The position numbers and the translations under genes were made by a program. This document shows positions 22,479 through 47,177 of a DNA stretch of 64,000 bases, one piece after another. Location of the stretch: the NCBI RefSeq assembly GCF_056746865.1, contig NZ_CM163382.1. One strand, 5' to 3'. The notes under the pieces are model-generated. The model saw only the letters and a list, made by a program, of their open reading frames with translations, did not search any database and had not been told where the DNA came from. How positions within the stretch are numbered: position 1 is the stretch's first letter; every line of letters starts with the position of its first letter.

Positions 22479-22487
22479 TCAACGCTC

Positions 22488-23420: not shown

Positions 23421-23484
23421 CATGTCCCTTTCCTAAGTCGCGAAAGCTATCCGTTAAGTATAGCTTTTATCAGACTTTTCGTTT

Positions 23485-24564: not shown

Positions 24565-24575
24565 GTCACGTCTCT

Positions 24576-27134: not shown

Positions 27135-27590
27135 TAGACTGGCCCCCTGAATCTCCAGACAACCAATATCACTTAAATAAGTGATAGTCCTGATACAAGT
27201 TTTTAGAGTAGTCATTAGTGAACAGATAATTGTTAACTTAGAACCAGTAAAATGCAAACGACGCACCACGCTGGGAAAATCGCTGCTATTCAGCAGAGTT
27301 TTGTACCGAGAATTGTGGCCAGCCACTTATTGCTCTCGCGTAAGCAGGTATCCCCATCGTTTACCAGTCCAGCACATCTTGTGGTCAGGCAGAAGAAGAG
27401 CAAACTGTTACTGGACTCACTGCATGCATGGTGGAGAAAAATGCCACGCTATCCAAAAATCCAGACTGGGAGAATGGTTCAGCTGTGTACTGAATCAGTG
27501 GGGCGCACTCTGTTATTACAGTGTTGACGGTCAGGCGGAGGCAGACATAATGCCGCGGAAAAAGCCCTTTGTGCCATCTGTCTCGGAAAT
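27135..27590 (+). mobile_element. IS2-group (IS3 family) left-end remnant
   Basis: first ~55 bp (TAGACTGGCCCCCTGAATCTCCAGACAACCAATATCACTTAAATAAGTGATAGTC) nearly identical to the IS2 end at 12468..12522, then a diverged OrfA-like reading frame. Confidence 0.55.
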
Positions 27591-27805
27591 AAAAACTTTA
27601 TGTTCTTCGGCGGCGAGCGCAGTGCACTGTTGTATGGGCTTATCGGCACTTGCCTTCTGAACGACATTGATCCGGAAGCGTATCTGCGCCATATCCTGAG
27701 CGTACTGCCGGAATAACCTTCCAACCGTATTGATGAACTCCTGCCATGGAACGTAGTTCTCACCAATAAATAAGCATCAATATGATTCTCCATTAACGCT
27801 TACCT
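27590..27805 (+). mobile_element. IS66-family right-end fragment (3' end of tnpC plus terminal repeat)
   Basis: encodes ...LLYGLIGTCLLNDIDPEAYLRHILSVLPE*PSNRIDELLPWNVVLTNK; ends in CGCTTAC (reverse of the GTAAGCG IS66 terminus). Confidence 0.55.
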
Positions 27806-27911
27806 TTTCTCAGGCTATTTTTGCTTTTTTTTGCTTTTCCCCGCCACTTTATGGTGATTATCACATCAATATACATCGATAGATATTAACGTAACTGAAG
27901 TGAGGTGAAGC

Positions 27912-29126
27912 ATGAAATTTGAACGCCATCATGAAATATTGAAACGACTCAGTAAATTCGGTTCTGTAAAAGTATCCGATCTGTCCAATAGCCTCAATGT
28001 AACGAAAGAAACTATTAGTTCAGATCTTAATGAACTTGCCAGGCTTGGCTATCTGACTCGATGTCATGGCGGTGCTTTTATCGTCCTAGACTCGCTTGAT
28101 ACTATTGCGAAAAATGAAATCGCTTATGCGCTTGAAAATTATGATACAGCCCAGGGAATAAAAAAAGGCCACTCAACTATGAAAAGTCAAGTATGCGTTA
28201 TTGGTTCGTTTAATGTTGATATCATCAGTTATTTGCCGAGGCTTCCCACTATCGGAGAATCGCTTCTGGCAAGTAATTTTATATTTTCACCGGGGGGAAA
28301 AGGCTGTAACCAGGCGCTGGCAGCAAGCTTTGCCGATACTGATGTTTATTTCATAACAAAAGTAGGTACAGATCACTTTAGTGATTATGCGATCAACTTT
28401 ATGAATTCGTCTAAGATTTATAAAAGTATAATTTATCAAACGAAAGAAACGCAAACCGGAACTGCCACGATCCTTGTTAATGAAGGTACTGGCGATAATG
28501 TTATTGCGATCTATCCCGGTGCCAACATGACAATGTCGTCCGATGAAATAACTATTCAGAAAGAAGCGATTATTAATTCTGATGTCATACTTCTGCAGCT
28601 CGAAACAAATTATACCGCTCTGCAACAAGCGATCACATTGGCGCAAAAAAACAGTATCCCGGTCATTATTAACCCGGCACCCTATAATGATATCGTCAAC
28701 GAACTTATTCAGGATGTTGATTATATCACCCCCAATGAAACAGAAGCTGGTTTACTGTCCGGCATAGACGTACACGATCTTGAATCAGCTAAACGAGCTG
28801 CAGAAGCTATCCACAATAAAGGGGTAAAAAACACGGTTATCACGCTCGGTAGCAAGGGCTCGCTCGCATTTGATGGCAAAAAATTCATTCATTCGCCAGC
28901 GTTTCCAGCGGTCGTTAAAAATACGGCAGGAGCCGGGGATGCGTTTAACGGCTCTCTGGCATCAGGACTTGCGAAAGGAAAATCACTGGAATCAGCACTG
29001 TGTTATGCCAGCGCCTTTGCATCCCTAGCGGTGGAGACAAGCAATGCTTCCGACATGCCTGAACATGAATCTGTGATACATCGAATTCAGAGTATACATT
29101 ATCAGCAAACTATTTTTACGCATTAA
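27912..29126 (+). CDS. DeoR-type HTH regulator fused to a PfkB-family carbohydrate kinase
   Basis: N-terminus SDLSNSLNVTKETISSDLNELARLGYLTRCHGGA (DeoR HTH); C-terminus with TPNETEAGLL and GAGDAFNG (PfkB signatures). Confidence 0.75.
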   Translation: MKFERHHEILKRLSKFGSVKVSDLSNSLNVTKETISSDLNELARLGYLTRCHGGAFIVLDSLDTIAKNEIAYALENYDTAQGIKKGHSTMKSQVCVIGSFNVDIISYLPRLPTIGESLLASNFIFSPGGKGCNQALAASFADTDVYFITKVGTDHFSDYAINFMNSSKIYKSIIYQTKETQTGTATILVNEGTGDNVIAIYPGANMTMSSDEITIQKEAIINSDVILLQLETNYTALQQAITLAQKNSIPVIINPAPYNDIVNELIQDVDYITPNETEAGLLSGIDVHDLESAKRAAEAIHNKGVKNTVITLGSKGSLAFDGKKFIHSPAFPAVVKNTAGAGDAFNGSLASGLAKGKSLESALCYASAFASLAVETSNASDMPEHESVIHRIQSIHYQQTIFTH

Positions 29127-29139
29127 GAAGGGACAGAGA

Positions 29140-29898
29140 ATGAATAACACCAAAAAATCACTAAAAGTGCTCTTTATTGGGGAATCCTGGCATATTCATA
29201 TGATTCATTCAAAAGGATATGACAGTTTTACCTCAAGTAAATATGAAGAAGGTGCGACCTGGTTACTCCAGTGTCTGAAAAATAGTCAGGTAGATGTCAC
29301 CTATATGCCAGCACATACGGTACAAATTGCCTTCCCTGAAGATGTGGCACAGTTAGAACAATATGATGCCATCGTTATTAGTGATATTGGTAGTAATACT
29401 TTCCTGCTACAAAATGATACTTTTTATCAGCTTCGCATAAAACCAAACGCTCTCGAACTGATTAAAGAATATGTGAATAACGGTGGTGGGTTATTGATGA
29501 TTGGCGGCTATCTCTCATTCATGGGAATTGAAGCAAAAGCCAATTATAAAAATACAGTTCTGGCTGATGTGCTCCCGGTTACGATGTTAGATGGTGACGA
29601 TCGTGTCGAAAAACCAGAGGGTGTTATTGCACAGCCATCACAACCTGAACATCCAGTTATTAAAGGGTTCTCTGAATATCCTTTTTTCCTAGGTTATAAC
29701 CGGGCGATCGCTAAAGAAAATGCTGAGGTGGTATTAACAATAAACAACGCTCCATTACTGGTCTTTGGTAACTATCACAACGGGAAAATAGCCTGCTTTA
29801 TGAGTGACTGTTCACCGCACTGGGGTACACAGCAGTTTATGTCCTGGCCGTTCTATACCGCGTTGTGGGTAAATATACTGACTCATATTGCAAGATAA
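29140..29898 (+). CDS. hypothetical protein, possibly class-I glutamine-amidotransferase-like (ThuA-like) fold
   Basis: 252-aa ORF 14 nt after the kinase stop; fold assignment is tentative, from memory only. Confidence 0.5.
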   Translation: MNNTKKSLKVLFIGESWHIHMIHSKGYDSFTSSKYEEGATWLLQCLKNSQVDVTYMPAHTVQIAFPEDVAQLEQYDAIVISDIGSNTFLLQNDTFYQLRIKPNALELIKEYVNNGGGLLMIGGYLSFMGIEAKANYKNTVLADVLPVTMLDGDDRVEKPEGVIAQPSQPEHPVIKGFSEYPFFLGYNRAIAKENAEVVLTINNAPLLVFGNYHNGKIACFMSDCSPHWGTQQFMSWPFYTALWVNILTHIAR

Positions 29899-29954
29899 TA
29901 ATAATAATGGGGTAACTCCAGTTACTCCATTTACTATAATAGAAGGATTGATGT

Positions 29955-30920
29955 ATGAAAAAGAATAAGTACTCAACTCCCTTATGGATGCTTGCCACGA
30001 TTCTTGCGGGTATGCTCTCCCCTATGCAATCAGCGGTGAATGGTCAATTAGGTCACTGGTTACAGGACGGTAATGCATGCGCAGTTATCTCCTTTGCCAG
30101 TGGTTTAGTCGTGATGTTTTTTATTATTATGGCGCGAAAAGAAACCCGGCAACAATTTGCGGCAATTCCTTCTCTGATTAAAAACCGAAAAGTTCCTCTC
30201 TGGAACTGGTTTGCCGGTCTCTGTGGAGCGATGGTGGTATTTTCTGAAGGCGCATCAGCCAGCGCACTCGGGGTCGCAACGTTTCAGACCGCACTGATCT
30301 CCGCGCTATTGCTGTCTGGTTTACTTTGCGATCGCTTTGGTATCGGTGTCGACGAGAAAAAATACTTTACCCCTTATCGCATCATCGGTGCATTATTTGC
30401 GGTTATTGCTACGATTTTTGTTGTGTCACCGCAGTGGCATTCTACCTCTTTCATTTTACTTGCCATTCTTCCGTTCTTAGCTGGTTTGCTTGCAGGATGG
30501 CAGCCCGCTGGAAATGCAAAAGTAGCTGAAGCTACGGGATCCATGCTGGTTTCAATCACCTGGAATTTCATCGTTGGATTTTGTGTTTTAGGCACAGCGC
30601 TAGCTATTCGTGTCGCATTAGGGCACGTCACTGTTCAATTACCAGATGTCTGGTGGATGTATCTTGGCGGCCCGCTTGGACTAATGTCTATCGGTTTAAT
30701 GGCCATTTTGGTCAGAGGTCTTGGGTTACTGATGCTGGGGGTTGCTTCAACGGCGGGCCAGTTACTGGGATCAGTATTGATTGACGTATTAATTCCATCG
30801 CTGGGCAATACCGTTTATCTGGTCACGATCATCGGAACACTGTTTGCACTGGTCGGTGCAATTGTTACCACTATTCCGGAATACAGAGCCTCGAAAACAA
30901 TGAAGAAAATGGAGGTATAA
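29955..30920 (+). CDS. DMT-superfamily membrane transporter (YdcZ/DUF606-like)
   Basis: 321-aa ORF, about 10 TM helices, internally duplicated halves. Confidence 0.6.
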   Translation: MKKNKYSTPLWMLATILAGMLSPMQSAVNGQLGHWLQDGNACAVISFASGLVVMFFIIMARKETRQQFAAIPSLIKNRKVPLWNWFAGLCGAMVVFSEGASASALGVATFQTALISALLLSGLLCDRFGIGVDEKKYFTPYRIIGALFAVIATIFVVSPQWHSTSFILLAILPFLAGLLAGWQPAGNAKVAEATGSMLVSITWNFIVGFCVLGTALAIRVALGHVTVQLPDVWWMYLGGPLGLMSIGLMAILVRGLGLLMLGVASTAGQLLGSVLIDVLIPSLGNTVYLVTIIGTLFALVGAIVTTIPEYRASKTMKKMEV

Positions 30921-30922
30921 TC

Positions 30923-31957
30923 ATGAAAGATTATCTACAAACTGTGACGGGCCCCGTCGCCCGTGAAGATATGGGGCTAACACTTCCTCATGAACATCTG
31001 TTCAACGATCTTTCCTCTGTTGTGGATGCTCCTTGCTATCCTTTTTCACAACGGCTTGTTGATAAAAAAGTCACGGCAGAAATCCAGTGGGCATTAAAAC
31101 ACGATCCTTATTGCTGCGCTGATAATATGGACCGCAAACCTATTGAAGATGTGATCTTCGAAATTAATAACTTTATCTCGCTCGGTGGTCGCACCATTGT
31201 TGATGCCACAGGGTCTGAGTCTATCGGACGAGATGCGCAGGCATTACGAGAAGTCGCATTAAAAACAGGTCTGAATATTGTTGCTTCCTCCGGTCCCTAC
31301 CTGGAAAAATTTGAAAGCCAGAGAATTCATAAAACGGTTGATGAACTGGCGACAACGATCGATAAAGAATTGAATCAAGGGATTGGCGATACGGATATTC
31401 GTGCCGGAATGATCGGTGAAATAGGTGTCTCACCGACATTTACCGAAGCCGAGCATAACAGCTTGCGGGCTGCCTCGCTGGCACAGATTAACAATCCTCA
31501 TGTGGCGATGAATATTCACATGCCGGGCTGGCTTCGTCGCGGTGATGAAGTACTCGACATTGTGTTAGGTGAAATGGGCGTCTCGCCAAATAAAGTCTCT
31601 CTCGCACACTCGGATCCGTCAGGAAAAGACGTGGCGTATCAGCGGAAAATGCTTGATAAAGGTGTCTGGCTGGAATTCGACATGATTGGCCTAGACATTA
31701 CCTTCCCGAAAGAGGGAATAGCGCCAGGGGTGCAGGAGACTGCCGATGCCGTCGCTCATCTCATTGAGTTGGGATACGCCGATCAGCTTGTTCTCAGCCA
31801 CGATGTCTTCCTTAAACAAATGTGGGCTAAAAATGGCGGTAATGGCTGGGGATTTGTTCCAGATGTTTTTCTGGCCTATCTGGCGGAGCGCGGCGTCGAT
31901 AAAACGATCCTCAAAAAACTCTGTATCGATAATCCCGGACGATTATTGACCGCATAA
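30923..31957 (+). CDS. phosphotriesterase-homology protein (amidohydrolase superfamily, Php-like)
   Basis: 344-aa ORF; metal-binding HEH at the N-terminus (LPHEHLF), later His/Asp ligands; start 3 nt after the transporter stop. Confidence 0.75.
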   Translation: MKDYLQTVTGPVAREDMGLTLPHEHLFNDLSSVVDAPCYPFSQRLVDKKVTAEIQWALKHDPYCCADNMDRKPIEDVIFEINNFISLGGRTIVDATGSESIGRDAQALREVALKTGLNIVASSGPYLEKFESQRIHKTVDELATTIDKELNQGIGDTDIRAGMIGEIGVSPTFTEAEHNSLRAASLAQINNPHVAMNIHMPGWLRRGDEVLDIVLGEMGVSPNKVSLAHSDPSGKDVAYQRKMLDKGVWLEFDMIGLDITFPKEGIAPGVQETADAVAHLIELGYADQLVLSHDVFLKQMWAKNGGNGWGFVPDVFLAYLAERGVDKTILKKLCIDNPGRLLTA

Positions 31958-31996
31958 AACCATTATCCCCCGGCACATTGCGCCGGGGGATGTCAA

Positions 31997-32335
31997 TTAA
32001 TACCCCGCCGTTAAATCATCCACCAAGCGCGAGTCGGATGCGCCGTACAACTCACCATCCGACCCAACCATAATGCTTTGCGTGCTGCCCATCGCCTCAT
32101 TCAGCGCCACTTTCTGACCTTTTGCTTCCAGCAGCTTGAGCGTATCCGGACTAAACCCTTTTCAACACGCAGCTCGTCCGGCAACCACTGATGGTGGAAA
32201 CGAGGCGCATTGGTCGCTTCGGCAACATTCATTCCACAATTGATGCTGTTCACCACCATTTGCGGCACGGTAGTGATGATCCAGCTACCGGTAACAAAGT
32301 GAGTACATAAAGGCCATACTGTCACGAACAGTGCA
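31997..32335 (-). pseudogene. ggt: gamma-glutamyltranspeptidase 3' fragment
   Basis: minus strand encodes ...TTVPQMVVNSINCGMNVAEATNAPRFHHQWLPDELRVEKG, then after a frameshift ...DSRLVDDLTAGY*. Confidence 0.7.
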
Positions 32336-32608
32336 AAAGTGGCTCTTCCTCAACCTAGGTGAAGATTTTCATGCCAGTGGACTCATTACCCTCCGCCTAA
32401 GTAGTTCAAGTCCGGCTCGACCATACATCTGGCGTATCAGCACCTTCAGGCGATTTACATGACCTTCGACAACACCAGTACTCCAGCGACTGCTGATTGC
32501 CTCACATATAGCCGCAGCATCAGCTTCCATCCCCGCAGCTACGCACCGAAGTTCTGCTGAGCCGCTTTCGTGGACCCGAGTGAACCAGCTGCTTAGCTGT
32601 GATTTATT

Positions 32609-33988
32609 TTAGGTTTTCAGAATACGGTAGAACTCGAGTACCAGTTGCTGCGCTATTTTCAACTCCGGTTCTTTTTCACACATCAGACTAATAAATCGGA
32701 AAGCATAATTTTCTTCACCCCTGATTATTCTCCAGGGCATCAACCAGCGGCTTACCCGTGACACTGAAGGAAGTCTTGCGGCAGTAGTAACCGGTGGGAT
32801 CCAGCCTTTATGCCATTTGGCAACAGCATCCCTGACGATGGTTTCACTGCCTGTAACCCCCCTGGCCACCATTTCCCGCCATATCCGGCCGGAGTTATAA
32901 TTACCACATTCTCGTTGCTCTTTTAACCACTCCCTCCATGGGTCCAGAAGCCCTCGCTTTGGAGGCCTGGTTGACATTTCAGGGAATGTTCCTGAACCCA
33001 CCCAGCGACTGACTGTCACTCGCGACAGGCCTGTAATACGGGATATTTCCCTGAAACTACATCCCTTGTTATGCAGGGCCATAACCTCTGTCCAACGCTG
33101 ATGCCGTTTTTTGCGGATGTGCTGTTTAAGGCGTTCCAGACGACGGAGCGATGCTACAGGCACAGATATTTCTGGCTCAGGTGATTTCTTCAGTGATAAC
33201 TCTCTGACAACAAGACGTATCAGAGGCATATGTCTGTACATCATTCGTTCAGGCTCATCACCAATATTTTTTAGCAGGTGCCATCGATCGGCCACCTGTC
33301 TGGCCTGAGGTGCACCTTCACGTGCTGCTGTCGCATAGACTCCACTGCGATCACGCGAGACAACCTGTATTTCCGGATATTTTCTGAACCAGGTCGCCAG
33401 CGTACGCTGATCACGGCCGGGAAGCAGGACGAGGGGACGGTGAGTATCAGGATTGACTATTAACATACCGCAGCAGTGGCCCCGATGCCACGCCCACTCA
33501 TCAATACCGACATGAGGCGCGCCTGACTGTTTCGTCTCCGGGGTATTGATAAGCCTGCGAAGAAGAGTATCAGCACTGCAACGGAGACCCACTGCCGTTG
33601 CAGCCCGTTTTCCAGCCTCACCTCCAGCTATTAATCCCAGTTGACGTTGTTAATTTTGTAACGCCTGTGAAGACTGCTGGTGTGAACTGGCGAAGGGAGC
33701 AAGCGACTCGGCAAAAATTTTACGTGAACAAGCCGGGTTACGGCAGTACCAGTGGCGGACGGAAAATACAAGCCATAGCGTCTGCCCTGAGCAGGGTAGA
33801 TGCTGTATCCGGCGCCGACGACAACTATGAACAGAGTCGCTACGCTTAAAGCATTCAGGACATTGTGCTGTTTTGCGTTTTCCGTGGAGATGGAGGGTTA
33901 TACCGTCAGAGCTAATAATTTGTCGACTGCATCGCCATCCGCAAGGTAACTGTAGAAGTGTCTTAAGAGAGTGCATTGCGTTGCCCAT
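32609..33988 (-). pseudogene. ISL3-family transposase, split by a frameshift
   Basis: ORF 33650..33988 has the zinc-ribbon N-terminus (LHLHGKRKTAQCPEC...HLPCSG...WYCRNPACSRKIFAE); ORF 32609..33592 has the DDE core (GIDEWAWHRGH...DRWHLLKN). Confidence 0.6.
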
Positions 33989-34271
33989 AACTTAAAACAG
34001 CTTAGATCCTTGTTCGCCAGAAAGTTTCATCCATTTTCTTCCACCCAGGTTGCGGAAGAACCACTTTTCATCCGTCGTTGACAGATGTGAAGTATGCGGG
34101 AGAAAAAGTGAATATCTAACTGTAATAACTCAGACCGGTACGAGTACTCGGGACGTCTACAATCATTCAGGGCAAAGTGCTAAAATTTCTCTATCCCGGG
34201 ATGCCCCTACCAACGCAGCACTCCCGGAGATATCATTACAGCTCTGCAACTGATTTCCGCGACTGAACCGC

Positions 34272-34679
34272 TCAGTTCCTATCCTTCCAGTTGCCCTCCT
34301 GCCCCCCCTCCCTGCTGTATACCCCGGTACCACAACTCGGGCAGCACTTTTCCCCCTCATAATTTTCGTCACACATCACACAAAACCACTTTCTCACCTT
34401 CACCGTATAATCCGGAACCGTCATACCCTGCAGATGCAAACGACGGGCCTCTTTCTCTGCCGGGTCAAGCCAGGTGCATCGCAGCAGGATTTTCTCAGCG
34501 ACAGTCATCTGGTCATGTTCAAACCACGGTGGTTGTCCGTCATTGCCCCGCTGAAGTGTTAACGGGCATCCACAGGACACACAGCACAAAACGTCCTGGC
34601 GGTTGTGCTTCGCTGCTTCTTTCGCCGTAACAAAATGGCCTTTGCTGTCATTCGCCATATAACAGTTCAGAATTCGCAT
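34272..34679 (-). CDS. Cys-rich hypothetical protein (paralog B of a tandem pair)
   Basis: 135 aa from ATG 34679 with AGGAGG RBS; same CxxC...PWFEH...CxxC layout; overlaps paralog A stop by 13 nt. Confidence 0.45.
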   Translation of the reverse strand: MRILNCYMANDSKGHFVTAKEAAKHNRQDVLCCVSCGCPLTLQRGNDGQPPWFEHDQMTVAEKILLRCTWLDPAEKEARRLHLQGMTVPDYTVKVRKWFCVMCDENYEGEKCCPSCGTGVYSREGGQEGNWKDRN

Positions 34680-35074
34680 ATTTCCTCCTGAGTTGTCCGG
34701 GGAATACTGAATCCTCCGGTCTGGCAGTGTGTGCAGTACCGCTCCCCATAATAATCGTGGTGACATTGTCTGCAGTGCCAGCTGGCTTTACGCACCACGG
34801 GTAAGGCATCCGGTACGAATTGCTGCAGACGTTTAATCAACTGTATTTCTCTGCGCTCCGGCCTGACATAAGGGCACTGTTGACCGTGCTCTGTCAGCCT
34901 GTCGTCAGTGTGTTCAAACCAGGGAAGTTCAGTGTCGTATTGCGGATGGTATCTGAGTGCACTGCCACACAAGTGGCAGGTGTAGTTAGCATAAGGTGCG
35001 GCCTGTGCAGTACGGGCGCCCGTCAGACGTCCGTTGCCATCAAGAGCGATAAAGGATTTTGCGTACATAGTCAT
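34667..35074 (-). CDS. Cys-rich hypothetical protein (paralog A of a tandem pair)
   Basis: 135 aa; CxxC...PWFEH...CxxC pattern; GAGGA RBS. Confidence 0.45.
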   Translation of the reverse strand: MTMYAKSFIALDGNGRLTGARTAQAAPYANYTCHLCGSALRYHPQYDTELPWFEHTDDRLTEHGQQCPYVRPERREIQLIKRLQQFVPDALPVVRKASWHCRQCHHDYYGERYCTHCQTGGFSIPRTTQEEICEF

Positions 35075-35327
35075 ATTCCTCAGCCGCCAGACGACACGCA
35101 GGCAACAGCCGTCCCGGTACGGGCAGCGTGGTCAGGGTGTGAATGGCGGTTCAGTTAAAATCTGGACTGGAGTTTGGGTAAAGCAGGCTGGTTGCTGTTA
35201 CAGCACTGTGGTTGTCACACAATGGAACACTGACGTAAAAAACAGTCAGTGGGCGAGTGGATACATCGTTGCCGCCAGACAACAACCCATACTTTTGGTT
35301 TGCCGGGTATTGGCGCGCCAGTCGTGC

Positions 35328-35897
35328 TCAACTCCGGCTACAGCCAAAATTGCGCTCACCGGTGCAGTGAGCTTTGGTATGTTCCTTCGCCAGATAGTCA
35401 GCACGTTCCAGCACCTGCTGAAAGCCAGTGTCATCATCGCGTTCCAGCCACACCGCCGGCCAGGCCGGGAAATGCACCAGCGTGGCATGGCACCCGACAT
35501 CCACTCCCAGGGCACTGCACCACGCCTGTTTAATCATCCCGGCCAGTGATCCCGGAGCACGGTAATCACCGGCACGACACCAGGTATCCCGGTTAACCAG
35601 CAGCATCAGGTGATAGTGTTTTTTACCTTTGCACTCCCCAAACTCCCGGGCCCAGACGTAATGCAGGGTTGTGGGATGCACGCGTTTACCTTCCCGATGC
35701 TTACGTTTCTGGTAAGCGTCGATTCGGGCTTTCAGGGCATTGATGAAGCGGGATATCACAGCTGCGTCCGTTGCTGCCGGTACATCCGGGAAACGCAGGT
35801 CAACCCGCAATGCCGTCAGGCGGGGATGAACATTCAGTGCGTGCCGCACCGTCTCACGAATACGTTGCTGCCAGAAGGGGTTGTATTTGTAGGTCAT
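35328..35897 (-). CDS. YagK/YfjJ-family (inovirus Gp2-like) protein
   Basis: ORF 35328..35933; likely start ATG 35897 (MTYKYNPFWQQRIRE) with GGAG RBS; family call from memory. Confidence 0.5.
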   Translation of the reverse strand: MTYKYNPFWQQRIRETVRHALNVHPRLTALRVDLRFPDVPAATDAAVISRFINALKARIDAYQKRKHREGKRVHPTTLHYVWAREFGECKGKKHYHLMLLVNRDTWCRAGDYRAPGSLAGMIKQAWCSALGVDVGCHATLVHFPAWPAVWLERDDDTGFQQVLERADYLAKEHTKAHCTGERNFGCSRS

Positions 35898-36093
35898 GGT
35901 TAAATCTCCGTATGGTTCATACGGAATAGCCACGTCGTAAAAAATGCGCAGAGTCCCTGAAGTGACCTCCGGCAGGACACTGTCTCAGGCACTCTGTGAT
36001 AACCCGAACGGTCGTCTCCGGACTGACGGTTGAATTTTCAGCGTTGTTTTTTTAATGTAAAAAACCGGTTACGGGTAAGGCTGTGAGGAGGGA

Positions 36094-36297
36094 GTGATGG
36101 TGATACGCAAAAAGAAGTGCAGGGACTGTGGAAACGCGATTACTCATAATACAGTGTGTTGCCCGTATTGTGGTTCTGTCGACCCCTTCGGCTATTACCG
36201 GAATACAGACCGTATCGTTACCATACTGCTGGCACTGATTATTGTGGTCCTGCTGACTACTGTCAGCGTCAGTGTGTATATACTGTGTAGCTGGTGA
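36094..36297 (+). CDS. small zinc-ribbon membrane protein (hypothetical)
   Basis: 67 aa; CRDCG...CCPYCG followed by one TM helix. Confidence 0.3.
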   Translation: MMVIRKKKCRDCGNAITHNTVCCPYCGSVDPFGYYRNTDRIVTILLALIIVVLLTTVSVSVYILCSW

Positions 36298-37423
36298 GAT
36301 AACGGTTCATGTATCCCCTGAGCTGACAGTGTACCGGGTATATTAAGCGTAACCGACAGGTTCTCCTTCATACCATATTAAATTTTTCCAGGTATTGCCG
36401 CTGCCTTATTTCGTCCCATACAGGAAAACTCGTCTGGGTTTCTGACAAATACGCGAAACTCACAGCCCCTCAATATCAACCACACGCTGTAAGCCGGTAA
36501 TACCTGAAAATCAGCCTATTACCGCCCGCGCCTCCGTTACCGAACGCTCAGGTGACCAGACTGAAGCCCAGCACGCACTCGTAAAATTTGCGGTCAGTTC
36601 CGTCAGTCAGTGGGCAACCGCAGAGTTACGGGCTTCCAGGTCCACAGGAGTGAGTCTATAACGCGTGTGGGAAATCATTTTTTCTGGCGTTGACAGAACG
36701 CCTTACGGGCTGCTACTTACCCGGTGTCCCGCAATACAGCCTTAGTGTTCCGTTATCGGGGATCCGGACGCACCGCAACAACCGGGGAAGTATTTCTGGT
36801 TAGAGCTGTGTCAAGAGGGATTTCTCAGCCCCTCACTCACCGGCTCAGTCTCAGGGCAGAAGCATTAATACACTCAGTTCATGTCTTATACAGGAATGGG
36901 CATAGGGGGAGCTGGCGTGTCACTGCTGATTTTACGCATCAGCGTTCATGTATCTGCACTCTGATACAGAATGCTTCACAGCGCTCTGTTACCGGAGAGA
37001 TTTACTCTCTTAGGTTATTCTGGCAAATCCTTTACGTTACTCTCTGATGACTTCTTATATTTATAATACCAATCAGACAACCTTATCCCATCGGTGATAT
37101 CAGTCTCCTGCTCGCCAGGAACGGGCTGACTCACTGTAACCACCTCCGAAAACAACTCTGCAATTATCAGAACGCCTGCTTCTCTCCCTGTCCTCACGAA
37201 AACTATCCCCTCTTTATCGCGCGTGCGTGCGGAAGCATCTTTTCGCAACCCCCCCCCCCGGGATTCCGCTACGGCTCTGCCATCGCAATCCCCCCGTTTA
37301 TCTCCGGACAGCCACATTCCCGATTATTTTTTACGTTTCTCCCCGGTTGTTATGCCGGTGAAGGTGGCGCGCTGTTTTCATGACCACACCGGCTGGTTTA
37401 ACAACATCCGGAGGAACATTCTC

Positions 37424-37630
37424 ATGGCTACCCCAGTTTCGCTGATGGATGACCAGATGGTCGACATGGCGTTTATCACTCAACTGACCGGCCTTACCGA
37501 TAAGTGGTTTGACAAACTCATCAAAGATGGGGGCTTTCCTGCGCCCATCAAAATGGGGCGCAGCTCCCGCTGGCTGAAAAGTGAAGTGGAAGCCTGGCTG
37601 CAGGCGCGTATTGCACAGTCCCGTCTGTAA
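37424..37630 (+). CDS. alpA: AlpA-family phage transcriptional regulator
   Basis: ORF 37223..37630; start ATG 37424 after GGAGG; 68 aa with MGRSSRWLKSEVEAWL. Confidence 0.75.
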   Translation: MATPVSLMDDQMVDMAFITQLTGLTDKWFDKLIKDGGFPAPIKMGRSSRWLKSEVEAWLQARIAQSRL

Positions 37631-37717
37631 TTTTTAACCACTAACCCTTCGCCCACAGCAGACGCAATCTCCGGCCTGCCGGCGGCGCTCTGCTGCCTGT
37701 TATCCCCCGTGAGGAAT

Positions 37718-38326
37718 ATGAAAATGAAACAACAGTATCAGACCCGTTACGAGCTGCTCCATGAAAACTACCAGAAATGGCTGACCGGCTTCACCCGGCA
37801 CGCCGTATCATGGGGCGTGTGTCATCCGAATATCTACTATTTCCATAATCTGACGCCCGGGTGGGTGTCATTCAATGGCGAAAAACCGGAGATTGCCATC
37901 GTTCCCCAGAGTCTGCACCGGCTGATTTATGGTCCGGACAAACGGAGCTCCCCGTCCCTGGATGATGATCTGGTGGTGAATTTATGCACCAGCGAACACC
38001 TGCTGGTTCATCATCCGATGCTGGAAGGGATCCTGCTGTCTGAATGTGAGCGCCTGAAGCAACATTCTCTGGCAAACAAACTGATCAGCCTCTTCCGTCA
38101 GTTTGGCGGCACGGAGTTACGTCTCAAACTGGTCTGGCTCTGCTGGCTTGACTTAATGACCGGAAACAGCCTTGACGACTGGACGAAAAACCTGAAACAC
38201 AAATCAGAAAAAGATCTGGAGCAATGGATCATTGCACGTCAGGGTCAGAGTGAACCACTGACAAATCTGATGGATCAGTACGTGCTTATGGCATACCGTA
38301 CATCGGTTGATGCCGCTCACAGTTGA
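37718..38326 (+). CDS. hypothetical protein
   Basis: ORF 37709..38326; ATG 37718 after GAGGA; no recognised domain. Confidence 0.45.
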   Translation: MKMKQQYQTRYELLHENYQKWLTGFTRHAVSWGVCHPNIYYFHNLTPGWVSFNGEKPEIAIVPQSLHRLIYGPDKRSSPSLDDDLVVNLCTSEHLLVHHPMLEGILLSECERLKQHSLANKLISLFRQFGGTELRLKLVWLCWLDLMTGNSLDDWTKNLKHKSEKDLEQWIIARQGQSEPLTNLMDQYVLMAYRTSVDAAHS

Positions 38327-39285
38327 TGTCTGAGAACCACAGGGCTGGCAGCAGAAAACCAGCCCTGTGGTAAAATACAGTAATAGCGGCGTACATCAGG
38401 CACGCCGCTCACTCGTCCACAGATCATATACGTCATTATACTGCGCGATAACGGAGGGCTTCAGCACCCGGTCATTTCTGAGCGGGTATGAATACCATTG
38501 ATGATGCGAAGCAGCCACGGGCAGAAACGTTCTTCACAACCAGGTGCCTCCATCTTCACTGCAGTCTGAATGTGCCGGCTTGTTATCCACCAGAAATGGT
38601 ATGCTCCGGTACATGCATACCCCGGAGACTATAAACGCACTGAATCATAGCCTCCCACCTCAGCAGGAGGCAGTCAGCTTTCAGGCGGAAAAACGTTGCA
38701 GTTAAAGATCGTGAGAATCGCTGTTTCGTTGCATAGCAACCCGAACAGTTGTAGTGAAACATTTTACCTGCATCAGCACATGGTCAGGCGCCGTCTGTAT
38801 GGCGTGGAATACTGATGTTTCGGCTGATGGCAAGCCTCATTCTCTGTGGAAACAGGGGCGCGCATTAGCTTCTCAACCAAGAGAGTGTCACAAAGACAAA
38901 TATTGCTGAAAATCGCATTCATCGTTCAGGCGTGAATGCCCGGAGACAAAAGCCGCTGTCCACACAGTCCCCCTCTGACCTGAACAAAAAGCATACACAC
39001 AACAGGCTCACCTGACCCCGAAAAACCATAACTTCAGCAATACCAGTGACACCAGCACGTTACCTCAGTGCCACATCTTCAGACCGCGATCAATCTGAAA
39101 TGTGACTATCGGGGCAATATCCCTGCTTTGTGGTACACGATAACCAGAAAACATCCCCTGAACCGCCAGCCAGAAAGACTGGCCACAAAAGGGGTAAGCT
39201 GAAATCGTTTATGGATTACATCGACATATGCCTGGCAGAGAATGGTAAGCGTGCAGTGAGAACCGTATTGACGAAGTGAAGCTGG

Positions 39286-40821
39286 TCAGGCGGGCAGAGT
39301 AACCCGCCACGGGAGCAGAGCACCCACCCGGTTCACAGGCCAGTCGGCGATGACATCAAGTACATGATGCAGATAGCGTTCCGGATCCACGCCGTTTAAT
39401 TTGCACGTCCCGATAAGACTGTACAGTGACGCACCGCGCTCACCACCATGATCCGAGCCGAAGAACAGCCAGTTTTTTCTCCCCAGACTGACCAGTCGTA
39501 GGGCGTTTTCGGCAATGTTATTATCCACCTCCACCCAGCCATCTTCTGCATAGCGGGTCAGCGCCGGCCACTGGTTCAGCGCATACCCGAACGCCTTCGC
39601 CAGTTCTGAGTGCCTTGAGAGGGTTTTCTGTTTCTCCCGCAGCCACCCCTCCAGTGACGCCAGCAGCGGCAGCACTTTTTGGTGCCGGACTGCCTGCCGT
39701 TCCTCTGCTCTTTTACCTCTGAGCTCCGACTCGATGGCATACAGCTCGCCGATCCGTTTCAGCGCCTCCTCCGTCAGGGCTGACGGGGTACGGACGTGAA
39801 CATCGTGGATTTTTCGGCGGGCATGGGCCCAGCACGCGGCTTCCTTTATATGGCCGTCGCGGTAGAGCTCGTTGAACCCGGCGTAGGCATCAGCCTGCAG
39901 TACGCCACTGAAGCCTGCAAGATGGGTCTGAGGGTGGATACCTTTTCTGTCCGGGCTGTAAGCGAACCACACTGCGGGGGCCAGCGCTGATCCGGCGTTG
40001 CGGTCGTCTCGAACGTACGTCCATAAGCGCCCGGTCTTCGTCTTCTTATTGCCCGGCAACAGCACCGGGACAGGCATATCGTCAGCATGGAGTTTGCCGT
40101 CGGTCAGGACATAGTGCTGAAGGGCTTCATCCAGCGGTGCCAGCAGACGACAACACGCATCCACCCAGCCCGACAGTACAGAACGACTCAACACTACACC
40201 CTGGCGGGCATAGATCTCCGACTGGCGATACAGCGGTATGTGCTCTGCATACTTTGAGGTCAGCACTCGGGCCAGCAGCCCCGGTCCGGCGATCCCCCGT
40301 TCGATGGGGCGCGAAGGAGCCGGGGCCTGAACGATGCGATCGCACCGACGGCAGGCATGCTTTTCACGGACTGTCCGGATAACCCGGAAGGCGCTGCGCA
40401 TCAGCTCCAGCTGTTCGGCGGCATCCTCACCCAGGTAACTCAGCGAACCACCGCACTCCGGGCAACACGGCTCAGTCGGCAGCAGCCGCTTCTCATCCCG
40501 TGGGAGTGACTCAGGGAACGGTTTGCGGGTGCGGGTCTGACGCAGCGGGCGCTGCACTGCCGGGTCATCCACCCGGCCGGTCAGCGTATCGCTTTCCTGC
40601 TGCAGCAGGTTCAGGTCAGCTTCCATTTGCGCGATACGGCGGGATACCTTTTCGGAACGACTGCCGAAGTTCATCCGGCGCAGCTTATCCAGTTGCGCCT
40701 GCAGATGGTCTATTTCGCGTTCCCGGTTGCTCAGCTTTTCCTGCAGGGCGTGGATCAACGCTTCCTGGTTCGGCCAGGCGCTGTTTCAGCAGAAGGATGT
40801 CGTCAGAAGAGGTGTCGTTCA
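39286..40821 (-). pseudogene. IS66 transposase TnpC with a frameshift in the first ~20 codons
   Basis: ATG 40821 encodes MNDTSSDDILLLKQRLAE, then one extra C shifts into the long ORF (QEALIHALQEKL...) at 40758..39286. Confidence 0.7.
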
Positions 40822-40871
40822 TAAGCCTGTATTTTACCAGGCTTATTCTGCGACAACCAGGATAAAGAGCG

Positions 40872-41219
40872 CTACAACATGGTCAGGGATGTCAGTAACC
40901 GCTTTGGCTGTCGCCAGTCGATACCTTCCATCAGCATCGCCAGTTGCGCCGGCGTCAGGAACACTTTGCCATCGCGGGCTGAGGGCCAGGCGAAGCGACC
41001 ACGTTCTAGTCGCTTTGTCAGCAGGCACAGACCATCGCCGGTGGACCAGAGCAGTTTTACCTGACTGCCGCTGCGTCCCCGGAAGATGAAGACGTGGCCG
41101 GACATCGGGTCATCTTTCAGCGCGGTCTGCACCTTTGCGGCGAGGCCATTGAAGCCGTTGCGCATATCGGTGATACCGGCAACCAGCCAGATTTTTGTGC
41201 CTGCGGGAAGATTTATCAT
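40872..41219 (-). CDS. IS66 accessory protein TnpB
   Basis: 115 aa, MINLPAGTKIWLVAGITDMRNGFNGL... Confidence 0.85.
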   Translation of the reverse strand: MINLPAGTKIWLVAGITDMRNGFNGLAAKVQTALKDDPMSGHVFIFRGRSGSQVKLLWSTGDGLCLLTKRLERGRFAWPSARDGKVFLTPAQLAMLMEGIDWRQPKRLLTSLTML

Positions 41220-41599
41220 ACAGGCCCCCGCATCAGTTCGCGCAGGACAGTGCTCATGAGTTCAGCAGAGGGATGAGTCAGTGTTATTTCTCCTCCCCGA
41301 CATTTTATGTGGCAGGTAGCGGGAGGAGAGCAGGATGGTAGTTCGAAGGTTGGGAGAGAAGAGCCCGCCTGAAGCTGCACGGGTATCAGGGCAGGAAGCG
41401 ACGATGAGTTTTTTCGGGGCCGACAGACCCGCCCTTCACGCTGCCAGAGCCTTATCCATTTAAAGAGCAGGTTATCATTGACGTCATGTTTCCGGGCCAG
41501 TGCGGCAATACTGCCTTCTTCTTCAAGAGCCAGCCTGACCAGTTCCATTTTGAATTCAGGGGAATAGTGTTTCCGGGGAAGTCTTTCTTTAGCGCGCAT
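41216..41599 (-). CDS. IS66 accessory protein TnpA
   Basis: 127-aa ORF whose stop overlaps the tnpB start. Confidence 0.7.
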   Translation of the reverse strand: MRAKERLPRKHYSPEFKMELVRLALEEEGSIAALARKHDVNDNLLFKWIRLWQREGRVCRPRKNSSSLPALIPVQLQAGSSLPTFELPSCSPPATCHIKCRGGEITLTHPSAELMSTVLRELMRGPV

Positions 41600-43154
41600 G
41601 AGGTGTCCACCTGCAAAATAAGTGGGTGCTTAAGTTACAGGATCCTGGATTCGGGACCAGACGGTACTCAGACGACGCTTACAGAGAATGTCCGGAATGA
41701 CGAGGTTATCTTTGCGGAGATTAAGGCAATGGTATACGGGCCGACGTTCCATGCCGCGTTACTACATTCAGCCCGGACGTAAAATGCGCCCGTCAAAAAG
41801 AACGGTTCGCTTCGAAACTCAGCCAGGATACCACCTCTCCGCCACACCCGGGAAGAAGTTGATATGGTGGTTGCCGGACAACAGCGCTCCTGGATTGACT
41901 GCTGCATCACTCAACCACGCTGAATATCAAAGGAGAGCGTTACCGGTTAAAAGAGAAACGTAAAGCTGTGGTGATGACCCAAAACGCAACGCCTGTCAGT
42001 GAGGATGAAATGGTGAAAAGCGGACAGCATCAGTAACGGAAGTATCTTAGCGGGTACGAAAATGGCAGGATCGTGACATTGACAGAATATCTCCTGATCA
42101 TCCTGAATGACTGCAGTTGCTGTAGAAAAGTAAGCTGTCTCCACCCACGGCACCACTTAACAGGCATTCCGTAACTTCCCCCAGACTTACTATGACGCAT
42201 TATCGGTGCACTGAAAACGGGAGAGTGCGCTTAAAACCGCAGACCGCATGCGGGTGTTACTGCATGACAGTCTGGCCGTATTGTGAGATGTCGGCAGGAA
42301 CCGATGTCCGCGCAGGGGGGAACTTCCTGCAGTACCTGACGCTTCAAATGGTATTAACCGTAGGGTGTTGTTGGTTCCGGATCGCGGAAATGGGAGCACA
42401 GGTCTGCTACGGGGTGTACCTCTGACAGTATATCCGGCTCGCTCATCTGACAGCCTCTCTCCCGGAAAAGACCAAAAATGAGATCGTCTCCTCAACAGCA
42501 GAGAAGAGGTCTTGACAGACAGGCTATATTGCATACGATTTATGAAGAAAAAGACAGCAAATATGGAGGTTATAGCGGAGAATACCCTACGAAATTCCTA
42601 TGAAAAACGATTGAAAAAAATATCAAATTCGATTCGTTTTTATATGCTTTTTGGGAGCGTGGCGATGACGAACTGTTGCATGTGCAGAGGAGAATGCACC
42701 CGGAAGCACCAGAATCATCCAGAAAGGCAGAACGATTACGCATCAAACCAGGAGACAGCAATATCAAGGTAATATACTGATTTAAAATGAATTTACAGCA
42801 ATACGTGAAAACATTTTTTACTTAAAGGAGACAGATGCGCTGAAGAGAGTGCAAGTATTTTTATATAAAAATGAGAAGTTTACGGGATGTATATCCGGCA
42901 CACTATGACCGGAGAATATCAGTCAAGCTTAAAAAGACAATAAATACAGTGAGTTAAATACACAGAGAAAACGTAGTATCAGAGGGTACATCTTACAACA
43001 GAGACTGAATTTCCGGTTTTTCATAACCGGCGCATTCCGGAAAGTGCAGGCGGCCCGGAGGTTTTCTGACGCCACTACCTGGTAGATTGTTCTGTACATC
43101 ATGTACGGAGGTTTTTGTTTGCTTTTTTAAAATCTGCAAATGTGAGAAAAGCAG

Positions 43155-44318
43155 GTGAGGTGTATTGTGGGAAAGGAACTGGATGATATCTGCACCAGCT
43201 GTCCGTATATCGATGCTGTAAAACGGCACAAACAACAGCTCGGTGCCATAGAGGAATATACACAGTGGTTAAAAAAAGAACCACGGGCATCTTATTTTTT
43301 TCTGTTCCAGCTGTATACCCGCATTCACAATACATTTTTCTCCCAAAAGCAACAACTCCCGTTCACTCCCGGTGGCACTCACTGCCCGGAACCTGATGTC
43401 ACCCTTCGGGACTTAACGCTTTCCCCTGGCTACCACAGTGATTATGCCCCTCAACCCATTCCGGAGATGGACAGTTCTGCTGTTGTTCCCCCAACTAATG
43501 AAAACACCTCGCCTCCGGAAGATACTCCCGACAACACTCCGGCCGGAGGCAATACCGGACAAGCGGAAAAGACCAGAAACGCAGGACTCACACCCATTCC
43601 TGAAAAACGTTCAGGAATGCCCCCGGAACATCTGCGGTTTGCCACGGGGTTTCCATCGCAACCGAAGATTGCCGGTCCCAGAGAAAAGCCGATGCGCACC
43701 GTGCATCCGGATAAAATCTACCGTGAAATTATATGGTTCTGCTCCAGTTACCTGCTGAAATCCGGACCAGAGGCTACGAGGACGATTATCAACTCAGTAT
43801 TCTCTGAATGGGCCAGCATAAACAATGATTACCCCTCCCCCTTTTCGTGGGTGGACAGCAGGGACAGTGAACAGTGTGACTGGTTATGGAACGCCATGCA
43901 GGTCCGGTGTGTGGGAACCCCGCTGAATCCCCTTACCCCGGAGCAGAAATACTGGTTTGCCTGCGCCACGTTTGATAACTGGGAGGGCTGGAATGAGCAA
44001 CAGGTACAGTTTTTACTGGAAAGTAATCCCAGACGGAACAGAGCGAAGTTTACGCAGGTCTCCTTCCAGGCCCCCAGGATTCAGCATAAAGCGATTCTTC
44101 TTGATGAGCTGAAAAGTGCCCGGGAGCAACAAAAAAGGCGTGATGAACGTGCTGATGGTTCCGTCCCTCTGAAACTGTCCGGAAAAATCCACAAACAGCT
44201 TGAAAGTATTGCCCGAAGTCGTGGTGTCCTCCCAAAAAAACTGCTGAATGAAATGATTGAGCAGGCGTACCATGATTTGGTGGCAACCAGGCAGAACAGC
44301 CAAATCGATTCCAGATAA
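43155..44318 (+). CDS. hypothetical protein with a Pro/Thr-rich central linker
   Basis: 387-aa ORF; start uncertain (GTG 43155 or 43167); no recognised domain. Confidence 0.5.
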   Translation: MRCIVGKELDDICTSCPYIDAVKRHKQQLGAIEEYTQWLKKEPRASYFFLFQLYTRIHNTFFSQKQQLPFTPGGTHCPEPDVTLRDLTLSPGYHSDYAPQPIPEMDSSAVVPPTNENTSPPEDTPDNTPAGGNTGQAEKTRNAGLTPIPEKRSGMPPEHLRFATGFPSQPKIAGPREKPMRTVHPDKIYREIIWFCSSYLLKSGPEATRTIINSVFSEWASINNDYPSPFSWVDSRDSEQCDWLWNAMQVRCVGTPLNPLTPEQKYWFACATFDNWEGWNEQQVQFLLESNPRRNRAKFTQVSFQAPRIQHKAILLDELKSAREQQKRRDERADGSVPLKLSGKIHKQLESIARSRGVLPKKLLNEMIEQAYHDLVATRQNSQIDSR

Positions 44319-44839
44319 TTTCAGACAGATATTATTTCCGTGAATCCCCCGCCACCTTTCCGGTGCGCGGGGTTTTGTCTTTTTTCACCGGGAATACATG
44401 TATGAATCCGTCTGATGCCATTGAGGCAATTGAAAAACCGCTCTCCTCCCTGCCTTACTCACTTTCCCGTCACATCCTGGAACATCTGCGCAAACTCACC
44501 AGTCACGAACCCGTGCCTGGCATTATGGGTAAAAGCGGGGCCGGTAAATCCTCACTCTGTAATGCGCTGTTTCAGGGGGAGGTCACCCCGGTCAGTGATG
44601 TTCACGCCGGCCCCCGGGAAGTGCAGCGCTTCCGTCTTGCAAAATGGCATCTGAATCGATCGCAGTTTGGCATTCGAATCGATCATGATTTGGCATCCAT
44701 CTCCGATCACAGTTTGGCATCACAATCGATCACGATTTGGCATGCTTCCGATCATTGATTGGCATCCTGCCAGTCACTCCGGGAATTAACTCTTTTCACC
44801 ACAGTCTCCATTGCCGTGTTTAAACCAGTGGAGACGTCA

Positions 44840-46405
44840 ATGTCCAGAAAGAGAAAATCCAGGAGCACTATGGAAACCTGTTTTAAGATTCTTCAGCTCA
44901 AGTTCGACAAGAAGCTGACTAACCGTTGTATCGGACTGACGTTACACATCAGCGCCTCAACCGTTTTTGAGGTTCTTGCCCGCTTCAAAGCCTCTTCTCT
45001 GTCATGGCCATTACCTGCTGATATATCCCATGACACGCTGGAGAAACTCATTTTTCCGCCCAAAGACACCTTTGCATCAGAGCTTGTAATGCCTGACATG
45101 TTGTACCTCGATACGGAAATGAGAAAACCAGGTGTGACGCGGCAACTGTTGTGGATGGAATACAAGGCACAGGCGGGTAACAAAGCGATGGGATACTCGC
45201 ACTTCTGCCGTTGCTACCGGGAGTGGAAAAAAACGCGACGTCTCTCCATGCGCCAGGAGCATCGTGCCGGCGAAAAGCTTTTTATCGACTTCTGTGGTCC
45301 TACGGTTCCTGTTATTAATCCGGACACCGGTGAGATACGCCGCGTGGCAATCTTCGTGGCCGTAATGGGGGCGTCCAACTATACCTACGTTGAAGCGTGC
45401 GAAGGTCAGGACATGATGTCATGGTTAAATGCCCACAGCCGTTGCCTGACCTTCCTGGGCGGCGTACCGAAGCTGCTCATCCCCGATAACCTCAGAAGCG
45501 CAGTGAAAAAGGCCGATCGATATGAGCCTGTCATCAACGACAGTTATCAGGCACTGGCTGAGCACTATGGCACGGTTATCATCCCGGCCCGACCACGCAA
45601 ACCTAAAGATAAACCAAAAGCAGAAAACGGCGTCCTCATCGTCGAACGATGGCTTCTTGCCCGCATCCGTAATGAAACCTTCCACACGCTCAGGGCGCTG
45701 AATGCGCGCCTTAGGGAGTTACTGACAGACATGAATAACCGGCCAATGAAGGGGTACGGCAATCAAACCCGTGCAGAACGCTTCCGCATACTGGATGCGC
45801 CAGCACTCTCTCCGCTGCCTCTGGCACCTTATGAATACACGGAATACAAAGCTGTGAAGGTTGGCCCTGACTACCACGTTGAATATGCCCGTCACTGGTA
45901 CTCCGTTCCACACGAACTGGTCGGTCAGCGTCTGTCACTGAAGGCGGGGCAGTCGGTGGTACAGCTCTGGCACAAGGGGCAGTGTGTGGCGCAACATCCG
46001 CGCAGCACACATGAATATAAACACACAACCAATCCGCTTCACATGCCAGAGCGCCACCGGCAGCACGGGACATGGACACCGGAACGCCTGATCGAGCAGG
46101 GAAAACGTACGGGCCCGTCCACAGGCCGGGTGGTTGAATCCATGCTGAAGGCAAAACCCCATCCGGAACTGGCTTATCGTGCAGTTCTGGGGCTGCTGGC
46201 ACTTCAGAAAAAATACGGCCCGGAACGGCTGGAAAAGGCCTGTTACGTTGCCCTGCACTATAACGCCCCTGACAGACGCTTTATCGACAATCTGCTGCGT
46301 CACCATCGGGAGAACCTGGAGCTTCCATTATCCCGCCAGGGCGAACAACATCCGGCATATGCTTCAGAGCATGAAAACCTGCGTGGTCCGGGCTACTACC
46401 ACTGA
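44840..46405 (+). CDS. istA: IS21-family transposase IstA
   Basis: ORF 44759..46405; start placed at MSRKRKS (44840), uncertain. Confidence 0.8.
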   Translation: MSRKRKSRSTMETCFKILQLKFDKKLTNRCIGLTLHISASTVFEVLARFKASSLSWPLPADISHDTLEKLIFPPKDTFASELVMPDMLYLDTEMRKPGVTRQLLWMEYKAQAGNKAMGYSHFCRCYREWKKTRRLSMRQEHRAGEKLFIDFCGPTVPVINPDTGEIRRVAIFVAVMGASNYTYVEACEGQDMMSWLNAHSRCLTFLGGVPKLLIPDNLRSAVKKADRYEPVINDSYQALAEHYGTVIIPARPRKPKDKPKAENGVLIVERWLLARIRNETFHTLRALNARLRELLTDMNNRPMKGYGNQTRAERFRILDAPALSPLPLAPYEYTEYKAVKVGPDYHVEYARHWYSVPHELVGQRLSLKAGQSVVQLWHKGQCVAQHPRSTHEYKHTTNPLHMPERHRQHGTWTPERLIEQGKRTGPSTGRVVESMLKAKPHPELAYRAVLGLLALQKKYGPERLEKACYVALHYNAPDRRFIDNLLRHHRENLELPLSRQGEQHPAYASEHENLRGPGYYH

Positions 46406-46421
46406 CAGAAGGAACAACAGT

Positions 46422-47177
46422 ATGAGTGATAACCTGTTAAACAAACTGACCCAACTGAAACTCCCGGCGATGGCCGGGAGCCTGATACGGCAGCGGGAAA
46501 CGCCTCAGACCTACGACGAACTGTCGTTCGAGGAAAGGCTGACGCTGCTGGTTGATGACGAGCTTCTGAGCAGGGAAAACAGCCGTGTGGCACGGTTGAG
46601 AAAAAATGCCGGCCTGAAATACCAGGCAACACCGGAAGGGCTGCGCTATCCGGCCTCAAGAGGTCTGCGGGCTGAACAGATGAGAGAACTGCTGAACGGC
46701 CACTACATAACCCACAGGAAAAACCTGCTGATAACCGGTCCGACAGGATGTGGCAAGAGCTGGATAGCCAATGCGCTGGGCGAACAGGCATGTCGACAGA
46801 AACACAGCGTCCGGTACTGTAGAACCGGGCGATTACTGGAACAACTGGCTCAGGGACGTGTTGATGGCAGCTGGCTGAAATATCTGAAACAGTTGCAAAA
46901 AATACAGGTTCTAATCCTGGACGATCTGGGGCTGGAACAGTTAAGTAACGCCCAGTGTAATGACCTTCTGGAGCTCATAGAGGATCGTTACGGACAAAGC
47001 AGCACGATAGTGGTAAGCCAGTTCCCGGTAGATAAATGGCATGGTCTGATGGAGAACCCAACAACAGCAGATGCCATCCTGGACAGACTGGTACATAACT
47101 CACACCGGGTGGTCCTTCAGGGAGAGTCACTGAGGAAAAATCCCCCGGTAGTGGAAAGCAGCGAAAAAACGCGTTAA
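46422..47177 (+). CDS. istB: IS21-family ATP-binding helper IstB
   Basis: start ATG 46422 (MSDNLLNKL); Walker A GPTGCGKS; DExx-like LILDDLG. Confidence 0.85.
   Translation: MSDNLLNKLTQLKLPAMAGSLIRQRETPQTYDELSFEERLTLLVDDELLSRENSRVARLRKNAGLKYQATPEGLRYPASRGLRAEQMRELLNGHYITHRKNLLITGPTGCGKSWIANALGEQACRQKHSVRYCRTGRLLEQLAQGRVDGSWLKYLKQLQKIQVLILDDLGLEQLSNAQCNDLLELIEDRYGQSSTIVVSQFPVDKWHGLMENPTTADAILDRLVHNSHRVVLQGESLRKNPPVVESSEKTR

Follow-up and report, generated by a model that had tools for sequence, protein, structure and literature searches.

The window analysed here is a stretch of 64,000 nucleotides (RefSeq assembly GCF_056746865.1, contig NZ_CM163382.1) from the Escherichia coli chromosome around the serU/asn-tRNA cluster. 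Its part from 1564 to 22432 carries a tRNA-Ser (cga) gene and four identical tRNA-Asn genes (at 2645, 19948 and 22357 on the plus strand and at 18124 on the minus strand), and an Rfam match to the EFASI sRNA lies at 6401..6530 (minus strand). The island that concerns us begins after cobU and ends with yeeS-yeeT-cbeA-cbtA-yeeW, adjoining yeeX, sbmC, dacD and sbcB. On the K-12 map this position is that of the CP4-44 locus.

Strain AR_452 is 100% identical to the window over the alpA region and collinear with it at 99.5% over 20944..44637. It has the yersiniabactin HPI in the tRNA-Asn region, which the window does not. About 2.6 kb of the window (44637..47273) are missing from the otherwise collinear AR_452 island. 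The segment from cobU to the Gp2 gene (window 25900..35000, collinear with L001 4918..14119) is heavily decayed in the AR_452 annotation, which lists frameshifted genes for a PfkB kinase, a glutamine amidotransferase and a DMT transporter, together with IS4, IS66 and ISL3 fragments and no integrase. Nor does the annotation of the collinear AR_452 island include an integrase anywhere between cobU and yeeW.

Locally, a minus-strand gene of the inovirus-Gp2 family comes first, followed by a small zinc-ribbon ORF, an hha remnant, about 730 nucleotides with no conserved ORF, alpA and a gene of 200 amino acids. The features of this region are:

36553..36690, minus strand: pseudogene remnant of hha (Hha/YmoA family), with an internal stop and no N-terminus
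37000..37350, plus strand: C-rich, G-poor stretch containing the tract, with a GC skew of -0.35 to -0.42
37015..37317, minus strand: ORF of 100 amino acids in which the tract is read as poly-G (RGGGL), most likely no gene
37218..37231, plus strand: alternating CG/TG run of 14 nucleotides, 17 nucleotides upstream of the tract
37243..37255 and 37283..37295, plus strand: direct repeat of TCGCAA with a C-run, 40 nucleotides from start to start
37249..37259, plus strand: C11 homopolymer and hypervariable site, between A (37248) and G (37260), with GGG directly 3'
37327..37423, plus strand: conserved, structured alpA leader of about 97 nucleotides, from the TTTTTTAC motif to the ATG
37424..37630, plus strand: gene for an AlpA-family HTH regulator of 68 amino acids (PGAP annotation; Pfam PF05930, Phage_AlpA, E=1.8e-5)
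37724..38326, plus strand: gene of 200 amino acids with no assigned function, downstream of alpA

An intact hha gene of 70 amino acids occupies the same place in strain A30 (L016 839..1051), so that the ancestral island carried an hha gene divergent from alpA.

The 68-amino-acid protein also matches HTH_17 (E=1.9e-4), phrog_66 (E=8e-9) and the PHROG excisionase/transcriptional regulator families, while its match to the NCBIfam model 'excise' scores under the cutoff of that model. The Phage_AlpA match and the excisionase-type HTH place the protein in the AlpA family, and the Pfam and PHROG matches are what it has in common with the AlpA/Vis group. A studied member of that group is AlpA of CP4-57, which, according to Kirby, Trempy and Gottesman (1994), reportedly activates intA. 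The island protein is 33% identical to it over 30 residues and the upstream regions are unrelated. The K-12 CP4-57 alpA was dropped as a promoter reference, both the gene and its 43-nt upstream region being unrelated to the island alpA. The gene of 200 amino acids always adjoins alpA in this family and is probably co-transcribed with it; it has no NCBIfam or PHROG match.

Between the tract and alpA lies a leader with an invariant TTTTTTAC about 97 nucleotides before the ATG, followed by hairpin-forming sequence up to the Shine-Dalgarno. E. coli copies whose other parts have 75-85% identity hardly differ in this leader, and it can be recognised across Enterobacterales; in 45 of 83 AlpA-homolog loci, from many genera, TTTTTTAC stands at a constant distance from the ATG. 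When leader sequences are folded individually they are far more stable than their shuffled versions (mean MFE z of -3.0, with 32 of 39 below -2). RNAalifold on a MAFFT alignment of 26 leaders returns no structure, since the arms do not line up from one sequence class to another. Sequestration of the Shine-Dalgarno as a conserved feature of the leader is not supported: it is paired in 26 of 39 sequences, not above the 30.7 expected from shuffles. Rfam gives no match for the leader at the gathering score, and none at E<=1 in 36900..37700. Upstream of TTTTTTAC the 42 distinct leaders, anchored on the motif, have no positional conservation and no conserved -35/-10, and the alpA promoter is therefore not placed. 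A promoter-proximal element and a regulatory 5' UTR are both conceivable roles for the leader.

The run of eleven C residues at 37249..37259, 165 nucleotides before the alpA-like start at 37424, had been pointed out in a sequence-only reading of this DNA and is present exactly as described. It is the sole homopolymer longer than 8 in the window, where the next C or G runs in length are of 7 nucleotides. By chance, 0.012 C runs of at least 11 would be expected in the window under a first-order Markov model and 0.013 under an iid model. Comparison DNA agrees: there are no G/C runs longer than 9 in 435 kb of other enterobacterial loci, a single C8 is the sole G/C run of at least 8 outside the tract site in 197 kb of E. 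coli-like metagenome contigs, and no run of at least 10 occurs in about 630 kb of comparison DNA. The tract is not a chance feature. The C11 allele is also found in AR_452 (L001) and in an independent assembly (L138), although the window's own count of 11 could be off by about one.

On the same flanks we found 14 alleles; the material comprised complete genomes, metagenome contigs, independent assemblies and one viral contig. The list gives for each allele the sequence that stands between ...TTTTCGCA and GGGATTCC...:

Ancestral allele: ACAACCACCC
ACAA-prefix alleles: ACAA-C6, ACAA-C7
ACA-prefix alleles: ACA-C7, ACA-C9, ACA-C13, ACA-C14, ACA-C17
Interrupted allele: ACA-C6-T-C2
A-prefix alleles: A-C9, A-C10, A-C11, A-C12, A-C14

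Twelve of these occur among 18 copies whose 150+150-nt flanks each lie at most three SNPs from the window and are 99.87% identical (7 SNPs in 5,400 sites); A-C12 and A-C10 came from independent assemblies beyond this set. In copies at least 99% identical to the window every length difference falls in the tract, which ranges from 6 to 17 C among otherwise identical strains. Pure runs of at least nine have seven lengths (9, 10, 11, 12, 13, 14 and 17) on otherwise identical copies. The claim that the site is prone to slippage is thus borne out by near-identical copies with pure runs of 9 to 17 C, and the tract is a lineage-specific, slippage-prone and truly hypervariable repeat.

Homopolymers of ten or more are prone to error on long-read platforms, and the same sequence-only reading had allowed that the site might simply be an error-prone one. 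The records compared are mostly finished genomes of mixed technology, and differences of one base (C13 against C14, or C11 against C12) could be errors of this kind. Platform error cannot, however, explain the variation as a whole, because the range from 6 to 17 far exceeds the usual one or two bases, because alleles are also told apart by substitutions (the ACAA-, ACA- and A- prefixes and the C-to-T interruption) and because short-read metagenome assemblies agree, with C6, C7, C9 and C10 at the tract. In addition, identical alleles recur across unrelated samples; the interrupted allele C6-T-C2, for example, is unchanged in 11 independent samples. That the run or its variation is a product of sequencing or assembly is extremely improbable, and as a pure artefact the polymorphism is already largely refuted. 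What survives of the suggestion is that an exact count may be wrong by about one.

Of 5,426 complete E. coli genomes 3,640 have the alpA leader family, and a single genome can have as many as eight copies. Allele frequencies come from a systematic sample of 60 of 3,514 records and are not a full census; the window's lineage accounts for 16 of the 60. Within it the interrupted allele is the most frequent, with 8 of the 16 sampled rows (about half), and pure runs of at least nine are found in only four.

The origin of the run can be followed in some detail. The diverged paralogs L002, L011, L012, L014, L015 and L017, which are 75-95% identical, all read ACAACCACCC at the site, and ACAACCACCC, a C-rich but non-repetitive 10-mer, is therefore the ancestral state. 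In one lineage three successive A-to-C substitutions (ACAACCCCCC, ACACCCCCCC, ACCCCCCCCC) fused the short C runs while the length remained constant. Length changes appear only after these constant-length steps, and all such intermediates are found on identical flanks. Three A-to-C changes within 10 nucleotides, set against a flank divergence of 0.13%, are a strong local excess. A-to-C changes bordering a C run are expected from dislocation mutagenesis, that is, transient misalignment; such a process may have produced those seen here and would not require selection, though selection for a homopolymer could also account for the excess. The C-rich 350 nucleotides at 37000..37350, whose skew is absent upstream of alpA homologs in other genera, are a compositional background and the raw material for the run.

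The subsequent changes in length would have arisen by slipped-strand mispairing in replication. The second TCGCAA copy (TCGCAATCCCCCC, with a C6 run 30 nucleotides downstream of the tract) keeps its length in near-identical copies, which makes it an internal control; the interrupted allele is likewise length-invariant, whereas the pure runs of nine or more exist in seven lengths. Such threshold behaviour, with C6 and the interrupted allele stable and runs of at least nine variable, is what slipped-strand mispairing predicts. The C-to-T change in C6-T-C2 yielded a stabilised allele, and a culture of any strain with C11 or longer would be expected to contain a subpopulation of other lengths. Slippage, dislocation and the polymorphic simple repeats of E. 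coli have reportedly been dealt with by Levinson and Gutman (1987), in Kunkel's dislocation model and by Gur-Arie et al. (2000). The tract behaves as neutral mononucleotide microsatellites do: it is non-coding and lineage-specific, grew by adjacent substitutions, became unstable at about nine or more and was stabilised by interruption. It differs from the usual E. coli repeats in that 11-17 G/C is far longer; it is also unusual in that living strains still carry the full allelic series.

Several other features lie close to the tract. The alternating CG/TG run is invariant in the window's lineage and has indels in diverged paralogs (a 6-nt deletion in L015 and other changes in L011, L014 and L017). 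The TCGCAA repeat may be one to which a protein binds, or it may supply the template for tract changes. The sequence on both sides of the tract shows moderate conservation among E. coli paralogs, so that the region may not be functionless. In some strains the tract itself has been entered by an insertion sequence:

L010 52..1500 (UPEC 536), equivalent to window ~37252/37254, and also L021: ISEc20 (IS110 family, 1,449 bp)

The element sits inside the tract in UPEC 536, SaT040 and Esc11, and alpA is annotated as intact in UPEC 536, the copy inspected. In a metagenome contig, another junction of ISEc20 likewise comes straight after a C-run (GCCCC joined to GTTAC), and the preferred target of ISEc20 may be C-runs; a literature search on ISEc20 gave no paper on its target site.

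The slippage proposed for this site had been coupled to a stochastic control of AlpA and thereby of island excision or gene expression. The hypermutability is real, but we found no evidence that supports control of AlpA or of excision, and for the latter the island has no annotated integrase for AlpA to regulate. Under a phase-variable or rheostat-like control of alpA, the tract would either separate the core promoter from an activator site further upstream or form part of a long 5' leader. Its length would then alter spacing or helical phase and give a clonal mixture of expression of alpA and the downstream island genes, and AlpA itself might serve as the activator. In Gram-negative PICIs the AlpA proteins are master regulators, each activating its own promoter (PMC6092414, PMC11773190); this positive autoregulation speaks for such a control, and an upstream activator site with critical spacing is therefore conceivable. 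The tract is hypermutable in length and precedes alpA on the same strand; it also alters the spacing of the two TCGCAA motifs (40 nucleotides apart) and that of the upstream DNA relative to the leader. Precedents with repeats upstream of core promoters are also available (the poly-T of sabA and the poly-C of Bordetella fim).

We nevertheless regard this control as unlikely. The tract is absent from the diverged E. coli paralogs and from the alpA-homolog loci of other species: in 80 such loci from other Enterobacterales no G/C run longer than 7 occurs in the 520 nucleotides upstream. It ends 67 nucleotides upstream of the conserved leader, and no promoter-like hexamers flank it; neither a scan nor reading of the flanking hexamers gave a sigma-70-like promoter spanning it, and the scan gave no plus-strand promoter-like site in 35800..37800. 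The ORF across it is not conserved. The most frequent allele in the lineage is the stabilised, interrupted one, and its share of about half of the sampled lineage is the opposite of the outcome under selection for mutability. The 1.45-kb IS in the tract is tolerated, with alpA intact, in UPEC 536. The relationship of the protein to the experimentally studied AlpA of CP4-57 is only a distant one, the island is without an annotated integrase, and no cognate integrase or excision module was found on which the alpA-like gene would act; PICIs differ here too, since neither an integrase nor PICI replication/packaging genes are annotated in the island. On these comparisons, the pattern of absence in relatives, interruption and IS tolerance is unlike the product of selection for a switch.

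Two further readings would give the tract a function of another kind. The minus-strand ORF might be a gene (37317..37015) with poly-G in its 5' part, in which changes of one or two bases toggle the protein. An ORF of 100 amino acids with an ATG does span the tract in the window, its frame is kept in the C11 and C14 alleles and lost in C9, C10 and C12, and PGAP annotates an 88-amino-acid hypothetical protein there (WP_000840364.1) in some genomes, all of one sub-lineage. Those genomes, however, carry the non-repetitive ancestral sequence, and PGAP annotates no ORF there in the window's own lineage. In five diverged copies (L011 and L013-L016) frameshifts break the ORF, leaving recognisable peptide fragments in different frames; the N-terminal part of the ORF, upstream of the tract, is also read in different frames by lineage, and the ORF has no NCBIfam or PHROG match. 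We rejected a real gene with in-frame poly-G because of the frameshifts and the lack of family matches, and a translational frame switch is highly improbable. Alternatively, the C-rich 350 nucleotides of the plus strand, with the poly-C as core, might be transcribed from upstream and recruit Rho as a loading (rut) site, so that alpA would be insulated from read-through and termination tuned by tract length. The strongest known Rho ligand is poly(C), horizontally acquired islands are typical Rho targets, and the skew of -0.35 to -0.42 is sustained over 37000..37350. Yet there is no evidence that this stretch is transcribed from the plus strand and no plus-strand promoter-like site from 35800 to 37800, alpA homologs of other genera do not share the skew in their upstream sequence, and the conserved leader begins downstream of the stretch. 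We consider a rut site very unlikely.

In its mechanism the tract is like any other long G/C homopolymer. Poly-C in the promoters of Bordetella pertussis fim2/fim3 and homopolymers in Neisseria and Haemophilus promoters (opc, porA) are classical SSR contingency loci. The tract shares with SSR-type loci the hypermutable repeat (12 alleles in 18 copies), and with fim2/fim3 a poly-C upstream of a gene and length polymorphism by slippage. The repeats of fim2/fim3, opc and porA, however, lie between defined promoter elements or activator sites, are kept across strains, and their switching has been shown experimentally, whereas the tract lies outside any recognisable promoter, is known here from sequence alone, is not kept as a repeat across strains and orthologs, and is often interrupted where interruptions should be rare. 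In Helicobacter pylori sabA a poly-T tract upstream of the -35 element reportedly acts according to a 'rheostat' model, its function having been shown. If the alpA transcript starts near TTTTTTAC, the two cases would be alike in having a homopolymer upstream of the core promoter; the sabA tract, however, is a stable feature of its species and the present one is limited to one island, and there to a sub-lineage.

The reading we prefer, and think likely, is that a self-expanding mononucleotide repeat has recently arisen here in non-coding DNA and is probably neutral, most likely without regulatory function. Its length would have little or no effect on alpA because it lies outside the conserved alpA leader and any conserved ORF, and nothing that we found argues for such an effect. 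In all likelihood the tract is a hot spot of mutation; it is not a proven genetic switch. It might instead be a contingency locus that is only now emerging, in which length sets the distance of a putative upstream site (possibly one of AlpA autoactivation near TCGCAA) to the alpA promoter. This seems to us quite unlikely; if true, it would provide a positive-feedback gate, with heritable and reversible ON/OFF subpopulations for alpA and the island genes that it controls. To our knowledge, E. coli does not use homopolymer switches for regulators, and an effect of tract length on alpA would represent a rare repeat-based phase variation of a mobile-element regulator in this species.

A literature search gave nothing relevant on the tract, or on alpA with homopolymers in E. 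coli; what we report is a previously undescribed hypermutable mononucleotide repeat with no demonstrated switch. For practical purposes the locus is a warning for assembly and variant calling. It separates otherwise identical copies of the island and could for this reason be used as a fine-scale typing marker. The leader, with its invariant TTTTTTAC and no Rfam family, is the more durable by-product of the analysis. As to the tract itself, every intermediate from a non-repetitive 10-mer to C17 survives in sequenced E. coli on otherwise identical flanks. This makes it a clean natural example of the birth of a mononucleotide repeat, useful for calibrating slippage thresholds.
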